DNA of 64,000 nt from a phage. The position numbers and the translations under genes were made by a program. Positions within the stretch are counted from its first letter, which is position 1. The number at the start of each line of letters is the position of its first letter. The notes below the pieces were generated by a model. It made no database searches. It worked only from the letters and a program-made list of their open reading frames with translations, and had not been told where the DNA came from. The stretch lies in sequence record PZ027503.1; one strand, given 5' to 3'. Positions 6,082 to 53,275 of this stretch are shown piece by piece.

Positions 6082-6876
6082 TTGAGCAAGTTGAACATAC
6101 TTGATCAATATTACACTAACCCCGCTTATGCGGGGTTCTTATGTGATAAGATCAAAGAAATTTTTGGAGAGGAAGCTAACTACGTAGAACCATCTGCGGG
6201 AGAAGGAGCTTTCTCTTCTTGTTTTAAAAACATAACTTCTTTTGATATTGACCCTAAGTTTGAAGATTGTATTGAGGCAGATTTTTTAGCTCAATCTGTT
6301 GAGTCTGTTGGTAGTGTAACTGCTTTTGTCGGTAATCCTCCGTTTGGAAAAAATGCCAGTCTTGCCATTAAGTTCTTTAACCATTGTGCTGAAATGTTGG
6401 ATAACGAAGGTGGTATTTGTTTTATCTTGCCTCGCACATTTCAAAAAATCTTTTTTGCACACAAACTAAATCCCCACATGCATCTTCTTTACGAAGAAGA
6501 ATGTCCAAAAGGATCTTTTATTCTTCATGGAGAACCTTGGGATGTTCCTTGTGTATTCCAGATATGGATTAAACGCAACGAGAAGCGTTCTCCCGTTGTT
6601 TTAGGAGAGAATCGACTATTCGTATTAGGTAACAGTAAAGACTACGATATAGCCGTTAGGAGAGCGGGAGCAAGTGCAGGTAAAGTGTTATCAGAAGAAG
6701 ATTCTTTATCTGAAGCATCTACCTATTTTTTAAAAGCCTTGACTTCTAATCTTAAAACGCGTATCATTGAGGCTTACCCGTTACTTAAAGCTGAAGCTAG
6801 TAAAACTGCGGGAGTAAGAAGTTTAAGTTTAAAAGAACTTCAGTGGGTTCTGGAGAACATTAGAAAGGAGGAATAG
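6082..6876 (+). CDS. DNA N6-adenine methyltransferase (gamma-class motif order), orphan
   Basis: QYYTNP, motif I YVEPSAGEGAF, motif IV VGNPPFG in that order; no adjacent restriction endonuclease. Confidence 0.6.
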   Translation: MSKLNILDQYYTNPAYAGFLCDKIKEIFGEEANYVEPSAGEGAFSSCFKNITSFDIDPKFEDCIEADFLAQSVESVGSVTAFVGNPPFGKNASLAIKFFNHCAEMLDNEGGICFILPRTFQKIFFAHKLNPHMHLLYEEECPKGSFILHGEPWDVPCVFQIWIKRNEKRSPVVLGENRLFVLGNSKDYDIAVRRAGASAGKVLSEEDSLSEASTYFLKALTSNLKTRIIEAYPLLKAEASKTAGVRSLSLKELQWVLENIRKEE

Positions 6877-9473
6877 TGAGTAAGTTTACATGGGATATTG
6901 AAGCAAACGGATTGTTGAATAATGACACTATCGATTATTTAGCTAGTCCTTATCGTCTCAAAGACACATTTCAAATGCACTGTATTGTCTTAGAGAACCA
7001 TGAAACAGGAGAAATAGTAGCTTTCCACGATGGCCCTAAATACATCTTTGATGGGCGTCCTTATGAAGAGTCAGATGGTAAATACACATATGTTCTTAAA
7101 GAGTATGTGGCGCAAGATTACACACATTTTCAACTAAAAGATTTCCCAGACTTTATTAATCATGAAGGTTATTTTAAAGATAAGCCTGAATATCTGGTTG
7201 AAATGGCTGTGGCTCACAACGGTATCAACTATGACTGGTTGGCTACAAAACTGTTTTATGGTTTAGATTACAGTGTTAAATATAATACGTGGGGCAAAAA
7301 TAAGGTAAAACTTATTGACTCCTTGATTTTGAGTAAAGTGTTAAACCCAGATCGAAAGATTGAGGGCAAATCAGGACATAGCTTGGCAGCACTTTCTCGA
7401 AAGGCAGGTGGTGATGTAAAAATAGATTTCCGTAAAGAGATTCCAGAAGAAGATCGATTTAAGACTTTTGCTGCGGATATGCTTTATTACTGTATCTATG
7501 ACAACAAAGCCAATACGAGCGTATATAATTACCTTATGGAAGAATGGGGTGATTATGATAAATGGGAAGGTCCATTTGAACTTGAACAACGTGTAGCAGA
7601 CATTATTACACGCCAGGAACACCGTGGGTTTGCTTTTAACATGAAACAAGCAGAAGAGAACCTTGCTTTTTTGGATGCAGAAATGGAGCGTCTTCGTTTA
7701 CTCGTTGAGCCTATTTTGCCACCTAAACCAGCAACAAAAGGTTATCTTAAGGCTTTTATTCCACCTAAGTTGCAAATTAAAAAGAACTTAGAGCCAACTA
7801 ACCATATGATCAATTTTGCTAAGAAACATGATGGTCATTTGGAAGAGAGGGATGGAGATTGGTGGTTAGTGATGTTGGGGAAAGAATGGAAACTGCCAGT
7901 TGCAGCAGATGAACCTTTGTGTGATCCTAATATCCCTGCAACATTGAACGATACTACCCATATTAAAAACTGGCTTGTAGGATTAGGTTGGGTACCGTCT
8001 GAATATAAAGATAAAGACTTGACTCTTAAATCTGGCACCAAGATTAAAAAGAGCGAGGAAGAACTTCAGAAAGGTATTCGAGCTTACGTTGAGCAAACTC
8101 TGTCTTCTAATTTTTGTCAGGATCGTTGTGATCATCTGGAGTGCACACCGGAAACCTTGGAGAGGAAGATTCAAGAGCGTATAGCAAAAGGTAAGGGTCG
8201 CGGTCTTAAAGTATTGACTAACCCATGTTTTACCAAAGGTCAGGAAAAAGAAATCTGTCCTAACCTGCAAGCTTTAGGTGAGAAATTCCCTTATGCTACA
8301 CAGATTGTAGAATACTTAACGTATAAGCATCGTAGGAACTCTATTTTAGGCGGTGGTGCTGATTGGGAAGAAGATGAGGAAGATCAAGAATATGATAAAG
8401 GTTTCTTAGCCGCAGTAAGGGCGGATGGTCGTATTCCTACCCCAGCAGCTACATGTGATGCTGCAACCTCTCGTATGAAGCATAGGTCTGTAGCTAATAT
8501 TCCTCGTGTCACATCTTTGTTTGGATGGGAGATGCGTAACTTGTTTGGTGTAGAGGTTCCTAAGTACTTCCAGATTGGCTACGACTTCGACTCTTTGGAA
8601 GCAAAAATTGAATCACACTACTGTTGGCGGTACGAGCCGGAGCCACACGAATATTGTAACGCTCTGTTGTTAGAGAAACCTAACGATGTTCACACAATGA
8701 TGGCAAAACGTATCACTGAAACTATTGGACGTAAATTTGAACGTAGTCCTGCTAAATCTGTTAAGTATGGTATTACCTATGGTGCACAAGCCGACAAGGT
8801 TGCTAAAACAATTGGTAGCGACAAGTTTACAGGTCAATTGGTGTTCGATGCTTTCTGGGAAGCTGCATTCCCATTGGCGCGTCTTAAAGAACGTTTAAAT
8901 GATTTCTGGGTTAAGACTGGTAAACAATATGTTTTGGGTATTGACGGTCGTAAGGTTCCTACTCGTTCTGCTCACGCGATTCTTAACTCTCTGTTCCAAA
9001 GCGGTGGGGTTATCTGTGCTAAACGTGCAATGGTTATTTATGATGACATGATCGAAGAAGAAGGGCTAAGTGTTGACTTCTTTAAAGATGACTGGAAGAA
9101 TAAAGACTTCGTGCAACAAATGATTGCATATCACGATGAAGCCCAGCTTGAAGTTTCTCGTAACCTTGTAGAATTCAAATGGTTTTCACCTGAATCATTA
9201 GGTTGGAAGAAAGTAGACGATCCTGAAGAACAAAAGAAAATTGATAAAGAATGCCTTGCTAAAGTCGAAGAATGGAAGCATAATAAGGAAAAAGAGACAG
9301 GGCAAATTTGGGCTAACATTCATGAATCTCCCAAAGGTGGATGGTTTACAGCCTATAGTCGGGCAGGTGAACTTGCTGCTTTAGCTGTTACTAAGGCTGG
9401 AGAATTTTACAATCTTAATGTTCAGCTTACTGCTGGATATGACGTGGGGAATTCCTGGGCCAGTTGTCACTAG
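6876..9473 (+). CDS. family A DNA polymerase with 3'-5' exonuclease domain
   Basis: Exo I WDIEANGL; motif A-like GYDFDSLEAKI; motif B RSPAKSVKYGITYGA; motif C YHDE; GTG start with GGAGG SD. Confidence 0.85.
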   Translation: MSKFTWDIEANGLLNNDTIDYLASPYRLKDTFQMHCIVLENHETGEIVAFHDGPKYIFDGRPYEESDGKYTYVLKEYVAQDYTHFQLKDFPDFINHEGYFKDKPEYLVEMAVAHNGINYDWLATKLFYGLDYSVKYNTWGKNKVKLIDSLILSKVLNPDRKIEGKSGHSLAALSRKAGGDVKIDFRKEIPEEDRFKTFAADMLYYCIYDNKANTSVYNYLMEEWGDYDKWEGPFELEQRVADIITRQEHRGFAFNMKQAEENLAFLDAEMERLRLLVEPILPPKPATKGYLKAFIPPKLQIKKNLEPTNHMINFAKKHDGHLEERDGDWWLVMLGKEWKLPVAADEPLCDPNIPATLNDTTHIKNWLVGLGWVPSEYKDKDLTLKSGTKIKKSEEELQKGIRAYVEQTLSSNFCQDRCDHLECTPETLERKIQERIAKGKGRGLKVLTNPCFTKGQEKEICPNLQALGEKFPYATQIVEYLTYKHRRNSILGGGADWEEDEEDQEYDKGFLAAVRADGRIPTPAATCDAATSRMKHRSVANIPRVTSLFGWEMRNLFGVEVPKYFQIGYDFDSLEAKIESHYCWRYEPEPHEYCNALLLEKPNDVHTMMAKRITETIGRKFERSPAKSVKYGITYGAQADKVAKTIGSDKFTGQLVFDAFWEAAFPLARLKERLNDFWVKTGKQYVLGIDGRKVPTRSAHAILNSLFQSGGVICAKRAMVIYDDMIEEEGLSVDFFKDDWKNKDFVQQMIAYHDEAQLEVSRNLVEFKWFSPESLGWKKVDDPEEQKKIDKECLAKVEEWKHNKEKETGQIWANIHESPKGGWFTAYSRAGELAALAVTKAGEFYNLNVQLTAGYDVGNSWASCH

Positions 9474-9891: not shown

Positions 9892-10110
9892 ATGCGTAAA
9901 TTAGTGAGCTTTAATGTTTCAATTCTTGTTGATGAACAAAATGAAGATGTTATTAAAGGTCTTGCAAATAAGATTGCAGGTGGAATGACGGAAGCTGAAG
10001 TGTGGGAAGAATGTGCTCGACTTTATGAGGAAGGTGTTATTGAGGTCTTGGGGGATGAGATTAATATGGACGATGTTGTAAAAGTAACTGTGGAGCGTAT
10101 CAATGACTAA
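9892..10110 (+). CDS. hypothetical protein (72 aa)
   Basis: ATG with AAGGAGAAAA SD. Confidence 0.45.
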   Translation: MRKLVSFNVSILVDEQNEDVIKGLANKIAGGMTEAEVWEECARLYEEGVIEVLGDEINMDDVVKVTVERIND

Positions 10111-10696
10111 ATCAAAACAAATCAATATTGCCAAAGAAATTCTTACCGTATTAAAGATCGCTGATCCTAATTCTGTCTTGGCTGGCGGTGCTGTTCGTGA
10201 TTGGCGTATTCTTGATATTGCTGGACGTGATCTGGATTTCTATACATCCCTTCCTGCACATCGGACTGAAGAACAAATACAAGGATTAATTGCATCTGCT
10301 TTAATGGGAACCAATATTCGTAAACTAGGAAACAAAGAGGCTTCTGACAATTATGAAGGTGTTACTGGTCTTAAACACGTTTTTGAGTTTGAACGTGATG
10401 GTCAGCTTTGCAACCTTATGATTATGGAACCAAGCGTAATGACAACCTTTCTAAATGAGTTCGATCTGTCCATCTGCCAGGCTGCATTTGATGGGAAGGA
10501 TTGTTATTATTCTAAAGATTTTGAAACAACCTTGGAAACAGGGATCTGCTTCTTGCACAAAGACGTTAGAGAAGATGCCAAACACGTTATTAAAATTGCT
10601 ACACGTTTCCCATATCTTCGTTTTGTGAAAGAGGTTAAGGTTCCACGTCCACCTCAAGTAGATACCAGATTGGAAGAAGATGATATTCCTTGGTAA
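10103..10696 (+). CDS. minimal Pol-beta superfamily nucleotidyltransferase (CCA-adding / poly(A) polymerase head-domain type) with acidic SSB-tail-like C-terminus
   Basis: LAGGAVRDWRILDIAGRDLDFYT matches the GGxVRD...DxD catalytic signature of CCA/PAP enzymes; ends EEDDIPW. Confidence 0.55.
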   Translation: MTKSKQINIAKEILTVLKIADPNSVLAGGAVRDWRILDIAGRDLDFYTSLPAHRTEEQIQGLIASALMGTNIRKLGNKEASDNYEGVTGLKHVFEFERDGQLCNLMIMEPSVMTTFLNEFDLSICQAAFDGKDCYYSKDFETTLETGICFLHKDVREDAKHVIKIATRFPYLRFVKEVKVPRPPQVDTRLEEDDIPW

Positions 10697-10703
10697 TTAA
10701 AGC

Positions 10704-10733
10704 TTGACAATATTAAACATTTTATGATAGGAT
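10704..10733 (+). promoter_or_regulatory. sigma70-like promoter (TTGACA-N18-TAGGAT), nearly leaderless relative to the ATG at 10742
   Basis: Perfect -35 hexamer, 18-nt spacer, TAGGAT; same motif recurs at 52898-52927 and 53485-53514 on the minus strand. Confidence 0.5.
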
Positions 10734-10741
10734 AGCATTCA

Positions 10742-11134
10742 ATGACTGAACGTTCTAAGATAGCTGTTGAAACTGTTTATGGAAACTATACCAGTTTGAC
10801 ACTAGTTGAGAAAAATGTTGTAGGTCTTGACAACTCTTTTTATTTTCAAATTTTGGTTATTCAAGGTGGAAACAAGAAGCTAACTGCTCGTGTTGAAACA
10901 TCTGAAATAATTGAAACCACTGTTACAAACAAAGAATTCATTTCACTGCAAGATACAATCCGAAACGTTATAGACGAAGAAGGCAAAGCTGCCACAATTA
11001 AACTCGGAGGTTTTCCAGTGCAAATAGTTCATTTCCCTAATGGTGAAATTGGAGTTGGAATAGGTAAAGGTAAATACCTGTTAGAGCAAGATGATATGGA
11101 AAGACTCCGCTCTTTCTGTGCAAAATTAATGTAA
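10742..11134 (+). CDS. hypothetical protein (130 aa)
   Basis: ORF track; start immediately after promoter. Confidence 0.45.
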   Translation: MTERSKIAVETVYGNYTSLTLVEKNVVGLDNSFYFQILVIQGGNKKLTARVETSEIIETTVTNKEFISLQDTIRNVIDEEGKAATIKLGGFPVQIVHFPNGEIGVGIGKGKYLLEQDDMERLRSFCAKLM

Positions 11135-11150
11135 TGTAGAGGAGATAATA

Positions 11151-12038
11151 ATGTCCGTAATTAATACTGAAACTGATCGTAAAGGCAAAACCGTAACTTA
11201 TGCAACTGGTATCGTAGACTACGTTAAACTGGATAAATTCGCTGAACCTAAAACTTTTCATTGGGAAGGAAAAACGATTGTTTCAACTCACCGAGCTTCT
11301 CTTGTTCTGAAAGAGAAAGGTGCTAAACCAGATGAGAAAGGTGTTTGGATTTCTCTTGGTGACATTGAACTGAAAGAAGGTTATGAAAACCTGCAAGTCA
11401 AAGAAGGTGATAATTGGATCACTATTGAAAAAGGTGTAGAAGTAAGTATTGATATTGATCGCGTTGATAATAAAGGCGGTAAAACTTACTACAATACTAA
11501 AAAATCTCGTATTACAGTATTGTCTACCGATGGTGTTCAGAAGTCTAACAAATCTTCTGGCAATAAAGGTTCCAACGATGCTGCTCCTAAGCAGTCCTAT
11601 AAAAAACGTGATACTGTAGGTCTGGAAACTGGTCACGCAGTAAATGGTGCACTGGAACTGATTCGTAATGGTGTTAAAGGTGATGCTTTCGATATCGCTG
11701 GGGTTGTTCAATCTGCAACTGTCACGCTGAAATCGGAAATTGCTGAATCTCGTGGCGTTGACATTAATGATTATGATCTTGGGGCATCTGTTGGTCACGC
11801 TATCCTCAATGCTTGTAAAGACCATACCATTAAGACTGTATCTGTAGAAGATTTGATTGACTCTGCTCGTAAAGTTCTAGCTTTGTCTGATAAAGTTGCT
11901 GCTGCCATTCGTGGTTCCGCAGAACAACCTAAGAAAGAAGAGAAGAAAGAAGTTAAAAAACCTGAACCACAACCAGAACCAACTCCAAGTAATCAAGAAG
12001 AACCTCCAATGGACTTCGATGATGATATTCCATTCTGA
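11151..12038 (+). CDS. ssb: single-stranded DNA-binding protein
   Basis: C-terminal PPMDFDDDIPF acidic tail matching the E. coli SSB tail as recalled; Gly/Ser-rich linker; SD GAGGAG. Confidence 0.8.
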   Translation: MSVINTETDRKGKTVTYATGIVDYVKLDKFAEPKTFHWEGKTIVSTHRASLVLKEKGAKPDEKGVWISLGDIELKEGYENLQVKEGDNWITIEKGVEVSIDIDRVDNKGGKTYYNTKKSRITVLSTDGVQKSNKSSGNKGSNDAAPKQSYKKRDTVGLETGHAVNGALELIRNGVKGDAFDIAGVVQSATVTLKSEIAESRGVDINDYDLGASVGHAILNACKDHTIKTVSVEDLIDSARKVLALSDKVAAAIRGSAEQPKKEEKKEVKKPEPQPEPTPSNQEEPPMDFDDDIPF

Positions 12039-12071
12039 TCTTATTGATCTATAAAGAGTTTTTATAAAAGA

Positions 12072-12100
12072 AAGGAGCCAAATGGCTCCTTTTCTTATTT
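12072..12100. terminator. bidirectional rho-independent terminator between convergent operons
   Basis: AGGAGCC-AAAT-GGCTCCT hairpin with T-tracts on both strands. Confidence 0.55.
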
Positions 12101-51351: not shown

Positions 51352-51430
51352 TGGAGGCGGGAATTGGATTTGAACCAATGATCTCCAGCATATGAAACTG
51401 GCGAGGACGACCAGACTCCTCTATCCCGCT
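51352..51430 (-). tRNA. tRNA-Met or Ile2 (anticodon CAT)
   Basis: Manual fold: anticodon stem CCAGT/GCTGG, loop TTCATAT, T-arm ATTGG-TTCAAAT-CCAAT, encoded CCA; A1:C72 mismatch. Confidence 0.5.
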
Positions 51431-51436
51431 ATTAGG

Positions 51437-51506
51437 TATCCCGTGCTGGATTCGAACCAGCATCACAATAAGTTGTGGAACTCTTATCCTGTAAGTCTAA
51501 CGGGAA
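51437..51506 (-). other. degenerate tRNA-like element
   Basis: T-arm GCTGG-TTCGAAT-CCAGC and acceptor-like pairing but no canonical anticodon arm and no CCA. Confidence 0.3.
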
Positions 51507-51508
51507 AT

Positions 51509-51582
51509 TGGTTGTTTCGACAAGAATCGAACTTGTGTCTCACGATTATCAGTCGTGGGTTCTACCATTGAACTACGAAACA
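51509..51582 (-). tRNA. tRNA-Ile (anticodon GAT)
   Basis: Manual fold: perfect acceptor TGTTTCG/CGAAACA, D-stem GTTC/GAAC, anticodon stem CACGA/TCGTG loop CTGATAA, T-loop TTCGATT, CCA. Confidence 0.65.
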
Positions 51583-51588
51583 TTAAAT

Positions 51589-51665
51589 TGGTCGGAATTG
51601 CAGGATTCGAACCTGCGACCCTACGCTCCCAAAGCGTATGCTCTACCAAACTGAGCTAAATTCCG
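51589..51665 (-). tRNA. tRNA-Pro (anticodon TGG)
   Basis: Manual fold: acceptor CGGAATT/AATTCCG, D-stem GCTC/GAGC, anticodon stem TACGC/GCGTA loop TTTGGGA, T-arm GCAGG-TTCGAAT-CCTGC, CCA. Confidence 0.65.
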
Positions 51666-51670
51666 TTATA

Positions 51671-51746
51671 TGGCTGGTCTGTCTGGATTTGAACCAAACC
51701 TACGACAGTCAAAGTGTCGTGTGCTACCTGACTACACTACAAACCA
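51671..51746 (-). tRNA. tRNA-Gln (anticodon TTG)
   Basis: Manual fold: anticodon stem CGACA/TGTCG loop CTTTGAC, T-loop TTCAAAT, CCA; D-stem pairing imperfect. Confidence 0.55.
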
Positions 51747-51844
51747 ATAAATCATTTAATGAAGGGCAACCAGAAGAGGTGTGAGAGAAGGAGAAAACCA
51801 TGAGTAAAAGAGAAAGTTTTCTGGCAACCCTTTATTAAATAATT

Positions 51845-51918
51845 TGGAGCGTTCTACGAGGATCGAACTCGTGCCGCCGACTTGGAAGGACGGAATGCTA
51901 CCGCTACACCAAGAACGC
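51845..51918 (-). tRNA. tRNA-Gly (anticodon TCC)
   Basis: Manual fold: acceptor GCGTTCT/AGAACGC, anticodon loop CTTCCAA, T-arm ACGAG-TTCGATC-CTCGT, CCA; one anticodon-stem mismatch. Confidence 0.55.
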
Positions 51919-51929
51919 CCTACATCTTT

Positions 51930-51959
51930 ACTATACTACATTTTACTATTGGTTGTCAA
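51930..51959 (-). promoter_or_regulatory. sigma70-like promoter for downstream tRNAs (minus strand)
   Basis: TTGACA - 18 nt - TATAGT read on the minus strand; ends about 12 nt upstream of tRNA-Gly 5' end. Confidence 0.55.
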
Positions 51960-52232
51960 TAGTTTTATTGAGTGGGACAGTGACGAGTATCCCATTGGGT
52001 GACTAGCCCTACGTTCGGTAAGCTAACTTAAAATAATACAAAACCAAAGTCAAATATTATTCTTCGTTGCTGTCGATGGGAGAGCCGCTTCTTCTTTTGC
52101 CCCATCCAACCCTACTCCGGTCAAGTTTCAGGTGACTCTTTGTGTGATCAACACAATACTAAGAACACTGTCTTTCGAACAGACCTTGTGCACAGGATAC
52201 GACGATCAATCACAGTGCCCTTAATGTTATGT

Positions 52233-52307
52233 TGGTGCTCCCACTCTGAATCGAACAGAGATCCACGGATTACAAAACCGTTGTAATAGCCATTATACTA
52301 TAGGAGC
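52233..52307 (-). tRNA. tRNA-Thr (anticodon TGT)
   Basis: Manual fold: acceptor GCTCCTA/TGGGAGC, anticodon loop TTTGTAA, T-arm CTCTG-TTCGATT-CAGAG, CCA; U31:U39 mismatch. Confidence 0.5.
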
Positions 52308-52313
52308 AAAACT

Positions 52314-52390
52314 GGGACTCGGCAGGATTCGATACCTGCAATTCCAGAAGCCTCTTGGCGACTGGGGGTTTACCTTAACTCTACAAGTCC
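52314..52390 (-). other. degenerate tRNA-like element
   Basis: Acceptor-like pairing GGACTTG/CGAGTCC and T-arm with 8-nt loop TATCGAAT but no canonical anticodon arm, no CCA. Confidence 0.3.
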
Positions 52391-52397
52391 ATAATTC

Positions 52398-52483
52398 TGG
52401 CGATGAGTATAGGATTTGAACCTATATCGTTCTTTCGAACACGGATTAACAGTCCGCCGCTTAAACCATTCAGCCAACTCATC
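52398..52483 (-). tRNA. unusual tRNA: Asn-type anticodon arm (GTT) in a class-II body with 15-nt variable region, G73
   Basis: Manual fold: perfect acceptor GATGAGT/ACTCATC, anticodon stem GCGGA/TCCGT loop CTGTTAA, variable hairpin GTTC-GAAA-GAAC, T-arm ATAGG-TTCAAAT-CCTAT, CCA. Confidence 0.45.
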
Positions 52484-52489
52484 TTAATT

Positions 52490-52577
52490 TGGTGGTGAGT
52501 GATGGAGTCGAACCACCCGAATCGCAATGATAACAGATTTACAGTCTGCCCCGCTACCCCTACGGAATTAACTCACC
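52490..52577 (-). tRNA. tRNA-Tyr (anticodon GTA)
   Basis: Manual fold: acceptor GGTGAGT/ACTCACC, anticodon stem GCAGA/TCTGT loop CTGTAAA, long variable arm, A73, CCA. Confidence 0.6.
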
Positions 52578-52707
52578 TAAATACTAATATTTAAATTCTT
52601 TTTAAAATAGCCAGTGTTCACACCACTAACTATGAGTTATCGGTAAAGTGGTTACCGCCACTTGCCGAAGATTTACTCTGCTAAAGTAAGCTATATTAAA
52701 AAGAACT

Positions 52708-52793
52708 TGGCGGTAGATGTAGGACTCGAACCTACACGCCGTTTCCGACTACAGTTTAGCAAACTGTCGTGGCTACCATTTCACCAATCTACC
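52708..52793 (-). tRNA. tRNA-Ser (anticodon GCT)
   Basis: Manual fold: acceptor GGTAGAT/ATCTACC, D-stem GTG/CAC, anticodon stem ACAGT/ACTGT loop TTGCTAA, long variable arm, T-arm GTAGG-TTCGAGT-CCTAC, G73, CCA. Confidence 0.65.
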
Positions 52794-52798
52794 TAATC

Positions 52799-52889
52799 TG
52801 GCGGAAGGAGGGAGAGTCGAACTCCCAAGGCTCTTTCAAGCTCGGCGGTTTTCAAGACCGTTTTCGTCGCCACGTCGATTTGCCCTTCC
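52799..52889 (-). tRNA. tRNA-Ser (anticodon TGA)
   Basis: Manual fold: acceptor GGAAGGG/TCCTTCC, anticodon loop CTTGAAA, long variable arm, T-arm GGGAG-TTCGACT-CTCCC, G73, CCA; D-arm irregular. Confidence 0.5.
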
Positions 52890-52897
52890 ATACTTAT

Positions 52898-52927
52898 AAT
52901 CTAACATAAAATAATGTTAGTTGTCAA
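52898..52927 (-). promoter_or_regulatory. sigma70-like promoter inside tRNA array (minus strand)
   Basis: TTGACA - 18/19 nt - TTAGAT/TAGATT; about 10 nt upstream of tRNA-Ser(TGA) 5' end. Confidence 0.45.
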
Positions 52928-53123
52928 TAGTTTTTTAAAACATTTTACCATGAATGGTGACTCCACCAACCCCCGTTCTCAACGAACGGTGCTCTTCGAG
53001 CATTTATGTCTTCTAATATAACCGTGGCCTTTGTTTATAATGTCTGACATACTTGCCTCATTCTCTGCCACCATGATCAGTAGTGGGTTCAAATCACTTG
53101 AGCTAATTCATGTTAAAATGTTC

Positions 53124-53198
53124 TGGTGTCTTTACAAGGAATCGAACCTTGACTAAGAGTTTAGAAGACTCCTGTGCTATCCATTACACCATAAAGAC
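53124..53198 (-). tRNA. tRNA-Arg (anticodon TCT)
   Basis: Manual fold: acceptor GTCTTTA/TAAAGAC, D-stem GTGT/GCAC, anticodon stem GGAGT/ACTCT loop CTTCTAA, T-arm CAAGG-TTCGATT-CCTTG, CCA. Confidence 0.65.
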
Positions 53199-53200
53199 GT

Positions 53201-53275
53201 TGGTGGCCCTGGCTGGTTTCGATCCAGCTACCTATCGGTTATGAGCCGACAGCTCTCCCATTGAGCTACAGGGCC
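53201..53275 (-). tRNA. tRNA-Met (anticodon CAT)
   Basis: Manual fold: acceptor GGCCCTG/CAGGGCC, D-stem GCTC/GAGC, anticodon stem GTCGG/CCGAT loop CTCATAA, atypical T-loop ATCGAAA, CCA. Confidence 0.55.

Follow-up and report, generated by a model that had tools for sequence, protein, structure and literature searches.

The stretch of phage DNA analysed here (sequence record PZ027503.1, 64,000 nucleotides; hereafter the window) carries on its plus strand a gene for a 197-residue nucleotidyltransferase (NTase) at 10103..10696, taken from the list of open reading frames (ORFs) and the sequence, with the stop codon inside the coordinates. The NTase ends in a short acidic tip resembling that of SSBs (proteins that bind single-stranded DNA), and its family is related to Gad2, a phage inhibitor of the Gabija defence system. 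Dozens of phAPEC8-like Escherichia phages (genus Phapecoctavirus, Stephanstirmvirinae) match the DNA between positions 9400 and 12100 at 98–99.5% identity. The ORF starts with ATG, situated 7 nt past a GGAG at 10092–10095, and has an 8-nt overlap with the stop of the upstream ORF. On the records of the 98–99% identical phages, the gene is named 'nucleotidyltransferase', 'putative tRNA nucleotidyl transferase / poly(A) polymerase' or 'hypothetical protein', and the identical protein is carried by 123 contigs under these same three names. In PHROGs, the NTase matches phrog_10174 'nucleotidyltransferase' (E 6.5e-63) and also phrog_1614, of the same name. The hidden Markov model (HMM) of the family recovers the NTase at E 3e-59; in the HMM search of the window, neither a second copy of the family nor a full-length CCA enzyme was found.

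The gene is located within a block of replication genes. A family A DNA polymerase (PolA) is encoded 630 bases upstream of the NTase gene (6876..9473, plus strand), as assigned from the ORF list and the annotations of the 98–99% identical phages, and this order is kept in relatives. On the downstream side, a gene for a 130-aa protein (10742..11134, plus strand) separates the NTase gene from that of an SSB-like protein (11151..12038, plus strand), which is composed of an OB fold (residues 1–125), a four-helix domain (residues 156–253) and a disordered tail ending PMDFDDDIPF. The order primase/helicase, PolA, small ORFs, NTase, 130-aa protein and SSB-like protein is that of the Stephanstirmvirinae. 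Elsewhere in the window, 10 tRNA genes are situated on the minus strand at 51352..53275.

The NTase consists of three parts, all encoded on the plus strand. The globular catalytic core (residues 1–175, 10103..10627) comprises a head domain and a short helical neck stub. Within the core lies motif A (residues 27–47, 10181..10243; AGGAVRDWRILDIAGRDLDFY), i.e., the GGxVRD...DxD signature, in which the segments AGGAVRDW and RDLDFY provide a helix-turn GG and the putative catalytic Asp residues D43 and D45. A Pro-rich linker predicted to be disordered (residues 176–190, 10628..10672; KEVKVPRPPQVDTRL), delimited by a drop in the predicted local distance difference test score (pLDDT) and by its variability among relatives, connects the core to an acidic tip with a C-terminal aromatic residue (residues 191–197, 10673..10693; EEDDIPW).

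In the AlphaFold (AF2) model of the NTase, computed with 108 homologues in the alignment, the mean pLDDT is 88.8. Every one of the best Foldseek matches in the Protein Data Bank (PDB) is to a CC-, A- or CCA-adding enzyme of class II or to the poly(A) polymerase I (PAP I) of E. coli, with E values of 4e-5 to 1e-3, TM scores of 0.50–0.57, approximately 190–200 aligned columns and 13–18% identity. The head-domain fold of class II enzymes (PF01743) is present in the NTase, which almost certainly has a class II-type fold. The minimal nucleotidyltransferase (MNT) of the HEPN-MNT or MenT/AbiEii toxin–antitoxin type is not the closest match in fold or sequence, and the partner gene of such systems is missing. 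Motif A aligns with the motif A of class II enzymes and with that of Gad2. Among 252 aligned family members, G28, G29, D43 and D45 are invariant (252/252) and W34 is kept in 251, whereby W34, A27, Y84, K164, Q6 and A10 are each more than 94% conserved. At position 104, the family has Gln or Asn in 98% of sequences, and Gad2 has Gln. No third catalytic carboxylate is universally conserved, and the active site may differ from that of canonical Pol-beta transferases.

The NTase shares with class II enzymes the GGAVRD (residues 28–33) and DLD (residues 43–45) elements of motif A, and in its clade the post-head helix EDAKH..K...RF resembles EDPLR..R..RF. However, at 197 aa it is half as long as the E. 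coli CCA enzyme (412 aa), PAP I (465 aa) and the phage CCA enzymes (370–469 aa), and, as it ends at residue 197, it lacks the tRNA-elbow-binding body and tail domains. The Pfam model PolyA_pol (PF01743) reaches 13.9 bits (E 0.07) over residues 26–65 only, below its cut-off of 23, and NCBIfam TIGR02692 reaches 12.6 bits against a cut-off of 438.8. When the family profile is compared by hhalign with a class II profile of 10 sequences (E. coli Cca, PcnB and eight phage enzymes), the probability is 65% (E 5.9e-5), and a 19-residue gap in the NTase family faces the LeeDLxRRD of motif B; compared with E. coli Cca or PcnB singly, the alignment is confined to motif A. The RRD of motif B, which recognizes the ribose 2'-OH, is absent from the NTase sequence, and in an alternative pairing of FDLSICQAA with RDFTINAMA both Arg residues are missing as well. 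In the case of motif D (EDxxR), the amino-acid template for CTP and ATP, the NTase has EDAKH at residues 157–161, aligned with EDPLR. E157 and D158 vary even in close relatives (NEYAKH, KVDAKH, KADAKH), and across the family the commonest residues are A, D or W at 157 and K, D or G at 158, leaving only H/Y161 and K164 conserved there. Both single-sequence and profile searches of PDB sequences gave chance-level matches only, with CCA enzymes at E ~0.35 through motif A alone.

Genuine class II CCA enzymes of 370–470 aa are found on 475 phage records and form a family distinct from the NTase, whose own family, unlike class II enzymes, is phage-restricted and linked to replication modules. The tRNA- and CCA-specific elements are lost from the NTase, while motif A and the neck stub are kept, and the protein is very probably not a CCA-adding enzyme. 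The original prediction, made by a model from the DNA letters alone, had described a 197-aa protein with the GGAVRD...DLD signature, had called it CCA/poly(A)-type, and had noted that it is about half the usual length with the tRNA-selecting domains missing or very divergent; the ORF bears out the first point, the comparison of the predicted structure with class II enzymes places the second correctly at the level of the fold, and the third agrees with the lengths given above. Its statement that all intact tRNAs encode CCA holds for 10/10 tRNA genes by ARAGORN. Its view of a CCA enzyme serving tRNA repair is not supported, given the absent motif B, the unconserved motif D and the PolyA_pol score below threshold. 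A stand-alone CCA-adding-enzyme head domain exists in bacteria, namely the 191-aa Streptococcus pneumoniae protein NP_344798.1 (PDB 2la3), but it has no detectable sequence relation to the NTase family and was not recovered by the profile search of PDB sequences.

Experiments have validated Gad2 as an inhibitor of Gabija, which is among the commonest bacterial defence systems. This 400-aa protein of phage SPbetaL7 was reported as the second Gabija anti-defence protein, and deletion of its gene renders the phage Gabija-sensitive; Gabija is also inhibited when a homologue from a Brevibacillus laterosporus prophage is co-expressed with it, a nucleotidyltransferase domain is predicted in Gad2 by AlphaFold, and a mode of inhibition other than the direct binding used by Gad1 was proposed (10.1101/2023.05.01.538930). 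A review of February 2026 describes the mechanism of Gad2 as 'yet to be elucidated' and names RecBCD inhibition and DNA-end sensing as triggers of Gabija (PMC12904381). In Pseudomonas putida phage Emajogi, gp22 is a nucleotidyltransferase adjoining the primase/helicase gp23; it bears a Gad2-family annotation in some phages and is toxic when strongly induced.

The family profile aligns with a profile of nine Gad2 homologues (from Supplementary Table 10 of 10.1101/2023.05.01.538930) at a probability of 96.3% and E 1.9e-9 over 158 columns, pairing query residues 7–190 with Gad2 residues 12–177 (hhalign), and with a single verified Gad2 at 79% (E 1.6e-5); the match to the Gad2 profile is much stronger than that to the class II profile (65%, E 5.9e-5). 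A small Gad2 HMM matches 158 of 252 sequences (the query and 251 family members; best E 2e-13), where a class II HMM matches 38 (best E 2e-6). Furthermore, PF26128, named Gad2 in contig annotations, is a precomputed match on 48 of the 120 best family members. The NTase family and Gad2 are both encoded by phages or prophages and have in common AGG...ND(L/V)D(V/F)Y; unlike class II enzymes, both also keep a Gln in the hairpin strand that comes next (vQvM / iQlI), as well as an FD(F/L)(T/S)(V/I)C motif, and the published list of Gad2 homologues includes short forms of 214–228 aa. There are also differences: Gad2 has GGxIT(S) where the NTase family has GGxxRDW, and Gad2 has no SSB-like tip. From these sequence comparisons, Gad2 appears as the closest characterised relative of the NTase, and the NTase family as a sister group, or a short form, of the Gad2 N-terminal catalytic domain, both being descended from a class II (CCA/poly(A)-type) head domain. 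Membership of the NTase in a wider Gad2-like group is a conclusion in which we have considerable confidence.

A profile search of 1.84 billion representatives (E ≤ 1e-3, clusters at 50% identity) places 2,932 clusters in the NTase family, of which 1,079 are found at E ≤ 1e-10 and 223 at E ≤ 1e-30. The best 150 representatives are mostly ~170–260 aa and are matched over their full length; the few longer members carry N- or C-terminal extensions, of which the N-terminal ones gave no informative domains. Across 185,579 bacterial and archaeal species genomes, one for each species, only three matches were obtained, all on contigs of metagenome-assembled genomes, one of them 98% identical to the window NTase. 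The family, in the main one of 175–230-aa proteins, is in practice phage-restricted. In PADLOC, the NTase is unrelated to defence-system proteins. As a separate observation, ORF223 of Vibrio phage ICP1 (locus L004, 4956–5369) is a 137-aa head-only version that ends at the conserved ...C-x-A-W position; a 180-bp gap comes next, and the gene is either truncated or a minimal form.

The genomic surroundings were read from 80 IMG/VR loci with family members, of which 38 are non-redundant and come from contigs no shorter than 40 kb. In 24 of these 38 loci, with ~9 expected by chance, the NTase gene has a Toprim-DnaB (T7 gp4-like) primase-helicase as a neighbour within 10 kb, and PolA is recognized in 14 of the 38 by a crude criterion; for tRNA genes, the count at this distance is no more than 6 of 36 loci. 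In the 47-kb Zobellviridae Vibrio phage 1.253.O, a primase-helicase, PolA, an acidic-tailed protein, a 5'-3' exonuclease and the NTase are compactly arranged, the NTase start overlaps the exonuclease stop, and the phage has no tRNA genes. Both the linkage to replisome genes and this tRNA-less phage argue against a role on phage tRNA and for one in DNA metabolism, in keeping with the suggestion of the original prediction that DNA rather than tRNA is concerned.

The last residues of the NTase, E191, E192, D193, D194, I195, P196 and W197, are followed directly by the stop codon, the layout of the SSB C-terminal tip (SSB-Ct). Bacterial SSB-Ct (...DFDDDIPF) and the NTase tail are built alike: behind a disordered linker come an acidic run, a hydrophobic residue and Pro, and the chain closes with an aromatic residue whose carboxylate is free. 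SSB-Ct, however, is carried by a ssDNA-binding protein and ends with Phe, whereas the NTase tip is carried by an enzyme and ends with Trp. In the AF2 model, no secondary structure exists past residue 175 and disorder begins at ~176, the mean pLDDT falling from 85 (residues 171–180) to 65 (181–190) and 50 (191–197), with residues 192–195 below 50. The six frames of the window contain 577 stop-to-stop ORFs no shorter than 40 aa; among these, an acidic end followed by [ILVMF]P[FWY] is confined to the NTase and the SSB-like protein, and a looser criterion (at least three acidic residues in the last eight and a terminal aromatic) returns the same two ORFs only; the resemblance of the two tails is thus not a chance feature of the window.

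The tip is conserved within the clade and recurs beyond it. Nine other cluster representatives of the clade, 59–98% identical, all end in PW (DDIPW in eight, DSFPW in one), with total lengths of 194–201 aa and with the preceding 15–20 residues variable in sequence and length. In 28 of the 28 members read from two clusters, IPW is invariant and the acidic run varies (EEDD, TDED, TDDD, EEED, LEED, KLED, TDDG). Three other lineages of the family, 29–37% identical to one another and to the window clade, carry the tips NDFPW, PDDIPW and SNDIPW, and their nearest sampled relatives (40–52% identical) have other ends. Member P0167, from a D[IF]PW-tailed lineage, directly follows primase-helicase and PolA genes; the context of the distant DFPW-tailed member P0028, in which a UvrD helicase, RlaP and an endonuclease occur but PolA does not, is uninformative. 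Most family members have no such tail, and Trp (24/251) and Phe (30/251) are strikingly frequent as C-terminal residues.

The original prediction had likened EEDDIPW to the DFDDDIPF of the SSB encoded two genes downstream. Both tails are real, but they differ in their last residue, Trp against Phe, and 'SSB-like' is the better term for the downstream protein, since no SSB domain is detectable in its sequence besides the tail. Approximately 100 of 120 homologues of the SSB-like protein end in xD[ILVC]PF and none in PW; the two tails are similar and, as far as their sequences tell, not interchangeable. PMDFDDDIPF, with which the SSB-like protein closes, is also the C-terminal decapeptide of E. 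coli SSB. In phage T7, the SSB gp2.5 and the helicase gp4 both possess acidic Phe-ending tails that bind the DNA polymerase, as known from work of the Richardson laboratory. In that case two different replisome proteins have a polymerase-docking tail in common, and its layout is that of the NTase tip. The suggestion that the tail recruits the enzyme is plausible on sequence and model grounds, the tail being real, conserved and placed behind a linker predicted to be disordered, and we judge it probably to be a functional docking tail. The chances that its partner is an SSB-tip pocket appear about even.

Taken as a whole, our preferred reading is a Gad2-like enzyme that serves phage DNA metabolism or counter-defence and is docked by an SSB-tip-like handle, a reading to which we give a probability of roughly 45%. 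The NTase would be expressed together with the phage replication genes (primase-helicase, PolA and SSB-like protein) and would catalyse Mg2+-dependent nucleotidyl transfer to a 3'-OH, whether that of a DNA end, of a primer end or of some other intermediate of replication. Such a transfer would serve phage DNA metabolism or would hide ends from end-sensing host nucleases such as Gabija; for a DNA end as the acceptor, however, we hold only a tentative view that leans towards the negative. In the Phapecoctavirus lineage, the NTase would have gained the disordered linker and the ...DDIPW-COOH tip, copying the architecture of the SSB C-terminal tip. The tip would then dock the NTase in SSB-tip pockets, either of host SSB-interacting proteins or of the phage polymerase or helicase, and this docking would concentrate the enzyme at ssDNA and 3' ends. 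A further step, which we consider unlikely, is that mimicry of the SSB tip delivers the NTase to genome-maintenance or defence proteins (ExoI/SbcB, RecQ, PriA or a UvrD-like helicase such as GajB), where it would modify DNA ends or the bound protein at the point where end-sensing immunity starts.

Several observations weigh against this reading. In the sister genus Justusliebigvirus, with the same gene order, the NTase ends in ...DDAWDDDKI or ...NNEEFKI, so the core function does not require the tail and the tip is either a lineage-specific gain or a loss. Across the family, the tails of NTases do not co-vary with those of neighbouring proteins (5.93 against a null of 5.31 ± 0.49), such co-variation with a protein of the same locus being seen only in Phapecoctavirus-like loci. 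Within the clade, the tip always ends in Trp and never in Phe, and the SSB-like family never ends in Trp, so the two may use different pockets. In the active site, no third catalytic carboxylate is conserved; the best candidate, E95, is acidic in only 74% of sequences and has no counterpart in Gad2, and catalytic competence is thus not assured. The core is also acidic (pI 5.6), which is unexpected for a binder of nucleic acid. As to Gad2, the window NTase is matched neither by the small Gad2 HMM nor, at a significant level, by BLASTP to a verified Gad2, and hmmscan does not report PF26128 for it; the link to Gad2 therefore runs via the family profile. The verified Gad2 proteins are ~400 aa, and their C-terminal half of ~220 aa is absent from the NTase. 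Moreover, Gad2 is situated in the anti-defence locus of temperate SPbeta-like phages, whereas the NTase belongs to the replication block of a virulent myovirus. A long form of 474 aa on the Gad2 paper's list, from Escherichia phage 4MG (KF550303.1; locus L105, 8001–9425), is placed between a tRNA array of ~25 genes, which it directly follows, and the terminase gene, which it precedes, and the window NTase shows no synteny with this long Vequintavirinae homologue.

This position of the 4MG homologue immediately after the tRNA array bears on a different explanation, in which the NTase is a minimal tRNA nucleotidyltransferase or poly(A) polymerase that repairs or tails RNA 3' ends, e.g., of tRNAs hit by host defences, the tail being irrelevant or regulatory. 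The closest solved folds, all of them class II CCA-, CC- and A-adding enzymes and PAP I, are in its favour, as are the phage's at least 10 tRNA genes together with a window that holds no full-length CCA enzyme. GajA is an OLD-family nuclease. Nucleases of this family can target tRNA (PMC12445682, PMC12904381). Against a tRNA substrate stand the missing body and tail domains, the absent RRD and the EDxxR motif that is unconserved even within the close clade, the PolyA_pol score of 13.9 bits against a cut-off of 23, the linkage to replisome genes (24/38 loci, against 6/36 for tRNA genes) and the family member in a 47-kb phage devoid of tRNA genes; the full-length CCA enzymes of phages (475 records) belong to a different family, the tRNA genes of the window all encode CCA, and E. 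coli has its own Cca. We consider this explanation improbable. The acidic core without any recognisable nucleic-acid-binding domain, and the lack of a third carboxylate combined with Gln/Asn at position 104, which suggests non-polymerase chemistry, point instead to an NTase that nucleotidylylates a protein or makes a nucleotide-derived small molecule, with DDIPW bringing the enzyme to some SSB-tip-binding protein of the host, such as a nuclease or helicase and possibly a component of a defence system, that is modified or inhibited. Such a mode would suit the proposal that Gad2 acts otherwise than by the direct binding of Gad1, and both the Gad2 of SPbetaL7 (10.1101/2023.05.01.538930) and gp22 of Emajogi are toxic when expressed. 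Nevertheless, the best structural matches are, by a clear margin, extenders of nucleic-acid 3' ends, most family members lack such a tail, and neither PADLOC nor other family evidence indicates a protein target; a protein or small-molecule product is accordingly quite unlikely.

For the tail itself, a reading that overlaps with the preferred one makes it a phage-internal handle for PolA or the primase-helicase, as in T7, or an autoinhibitory mimic of ssDNA that folds onto the NTase. The gene lies between those of PolA and the SSB-like protein, the family is linked to T7-type primase-helicases, and T7 gp2.5 and gp4 offer a precedent. The strict Trp of the NTase against the Phe of the SSB-like protein suggests distinct pockets, and D[IVM]PW-ending proteins of ~230 aa in the replication modules of other phages demonstrate that Trp tips exist in phage replisome proteins. 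On the other hand, Justusliebigvirus possesses the same polymerase, helicase and SSB-like genes, yet its NTase has no such tail, and the SSB-like tip, being identical to that of E. coli SSB over PMDFDDDIPF, points to host partners; we treat the internal handle as a minority possibility. Finally, the resemblance could be a functionless accident of an acidic C-terminus, as the tipless sister genus and the other C-termini of most family members would allow. Yet IPW is kept in 28/28 members, the tip holds at identities as low as 59% while the neighbouring linker alters both its sequence and its length, three distant lineages show the tip again, and it is one of only two such tails in 577 ORFs; by a rough, uncomputed estimate from residue frequencies, an [IF]PW end is expected in ~1 in 10,000 proteins or fewer. 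An accidental origin is therefore highly improbable, and the docked, Gad2-like enzyme of DNA metabolism or counter-defence remains the preferred reading.

Part of this was already known: the NTase gene is annotated, wrongly or too specifically, and the wider family has a Pfam model named after Gad2. Four points appear to be new, namely the size of the short-form family with its replisome linkage, the missing determinants of CCA enzymes, the conserved and recurrent D[IF]PW tip, and a hint of how Gad2-like enzymes find their site of action. Our literature searches retrieved no functional study of this NTase, of Phapecoctavirus NTases or of SSB-tip mimics, nor any treatment of these four points. 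Short Gad2-like enzymes constitute a very large, essentially phage-restricted family in replication modules, and an SSB-tip-like handle has been acquired in several independent lineages. These findings direct experiments away from tRNA and towards ssDNA, 3' ends and the network of SSB interactions, and they correct the widespread label 'tRNA nucleotidyl transferase / poly(A) polymerase', borne by the identical protein on the 123 contigs and unsupported by the sequence. If mimicry of the SSB tip is true, the NTase would be the first enzyme shown to use such a mimic as an address label, giving a mechanistic entry to the action of Gad2. Phapecoctaviruses are under development as therapeutic E. 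coli phages, and knowledge of their counter-defence genes is of practical use.

The SSB-like gene may have a second role. A 2026 preprint describes a phage protein of ~400 aa, Bas52_0087, as an SSB-like protein with an FDDDIPF tip that triggers the DRT10 reverse-transcriptase defence. The longer homologues of the window SSB-like protein, mostly of 370–430 aa, appear to be of the Bas52_0087 type. By this analogy, the SSB-like gene may be a defence trigger besides a replication factor. In some Justusliebigvirus SSB-like proteins (e.g., phage muut; locus L002, 6026–6973), ~15 residues extend past DFDDDIPF (...DIPFAPIGLQYGRNFLHCF), and several homologues end in FLHCF, FIHCI or RIYAL. These extensions would bury the free carboxylate of the tip and could represent a masked tip, read-through or an annotation artefact.

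Acidic Trp-ending tips are also observed in phrog_862, proteins of ~230 aa encoded between PolA and the 5'-3' exonuclease in Zobellviridae-like Vibrio phages. The four proteins end in ...DDGEDIPW (locus L003, 2759–3457), ...DGDDVPW (L033, 727–1416), ...KDKDIPW (L039, 7134–7805) and ...EGEDMPW (L066, 12918–13604). No sequence link of phrog_862 to gp2.5, to the window SSB-like family or to any PDB chain is detectable; these proteins may be the SSBs of Zobellviridae-like phages. The gp2.5-like SSBs of other loci end in DDS[IL]PF.

The 130-aa protein between the NTase and SSB-like genes belongs to phrog_16560 (E 1e-76) and has no match in Pfam, NCBIfam or PADLOC; its co-occurrence with these two genes is limited to 11 loci, all of the Stephanstirmvirinae type. 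In the 45-bp gap 3' of the NTase gene, a consensus scan alone yields a sigma-70-like promoter match (10704..10733, plus strand; TTGACA-18-TAGGAT with an extended TG), promoter-type matches in the NTase region being no commoner than in shuffles. The replication gene block ends with a bidirectional terminator-like hairpin (12070..12093, neither strand assigned), which sits 3' of the SSB-like gene at the junction with a convergent gene for an 890-aa tail-fibre-like protein.

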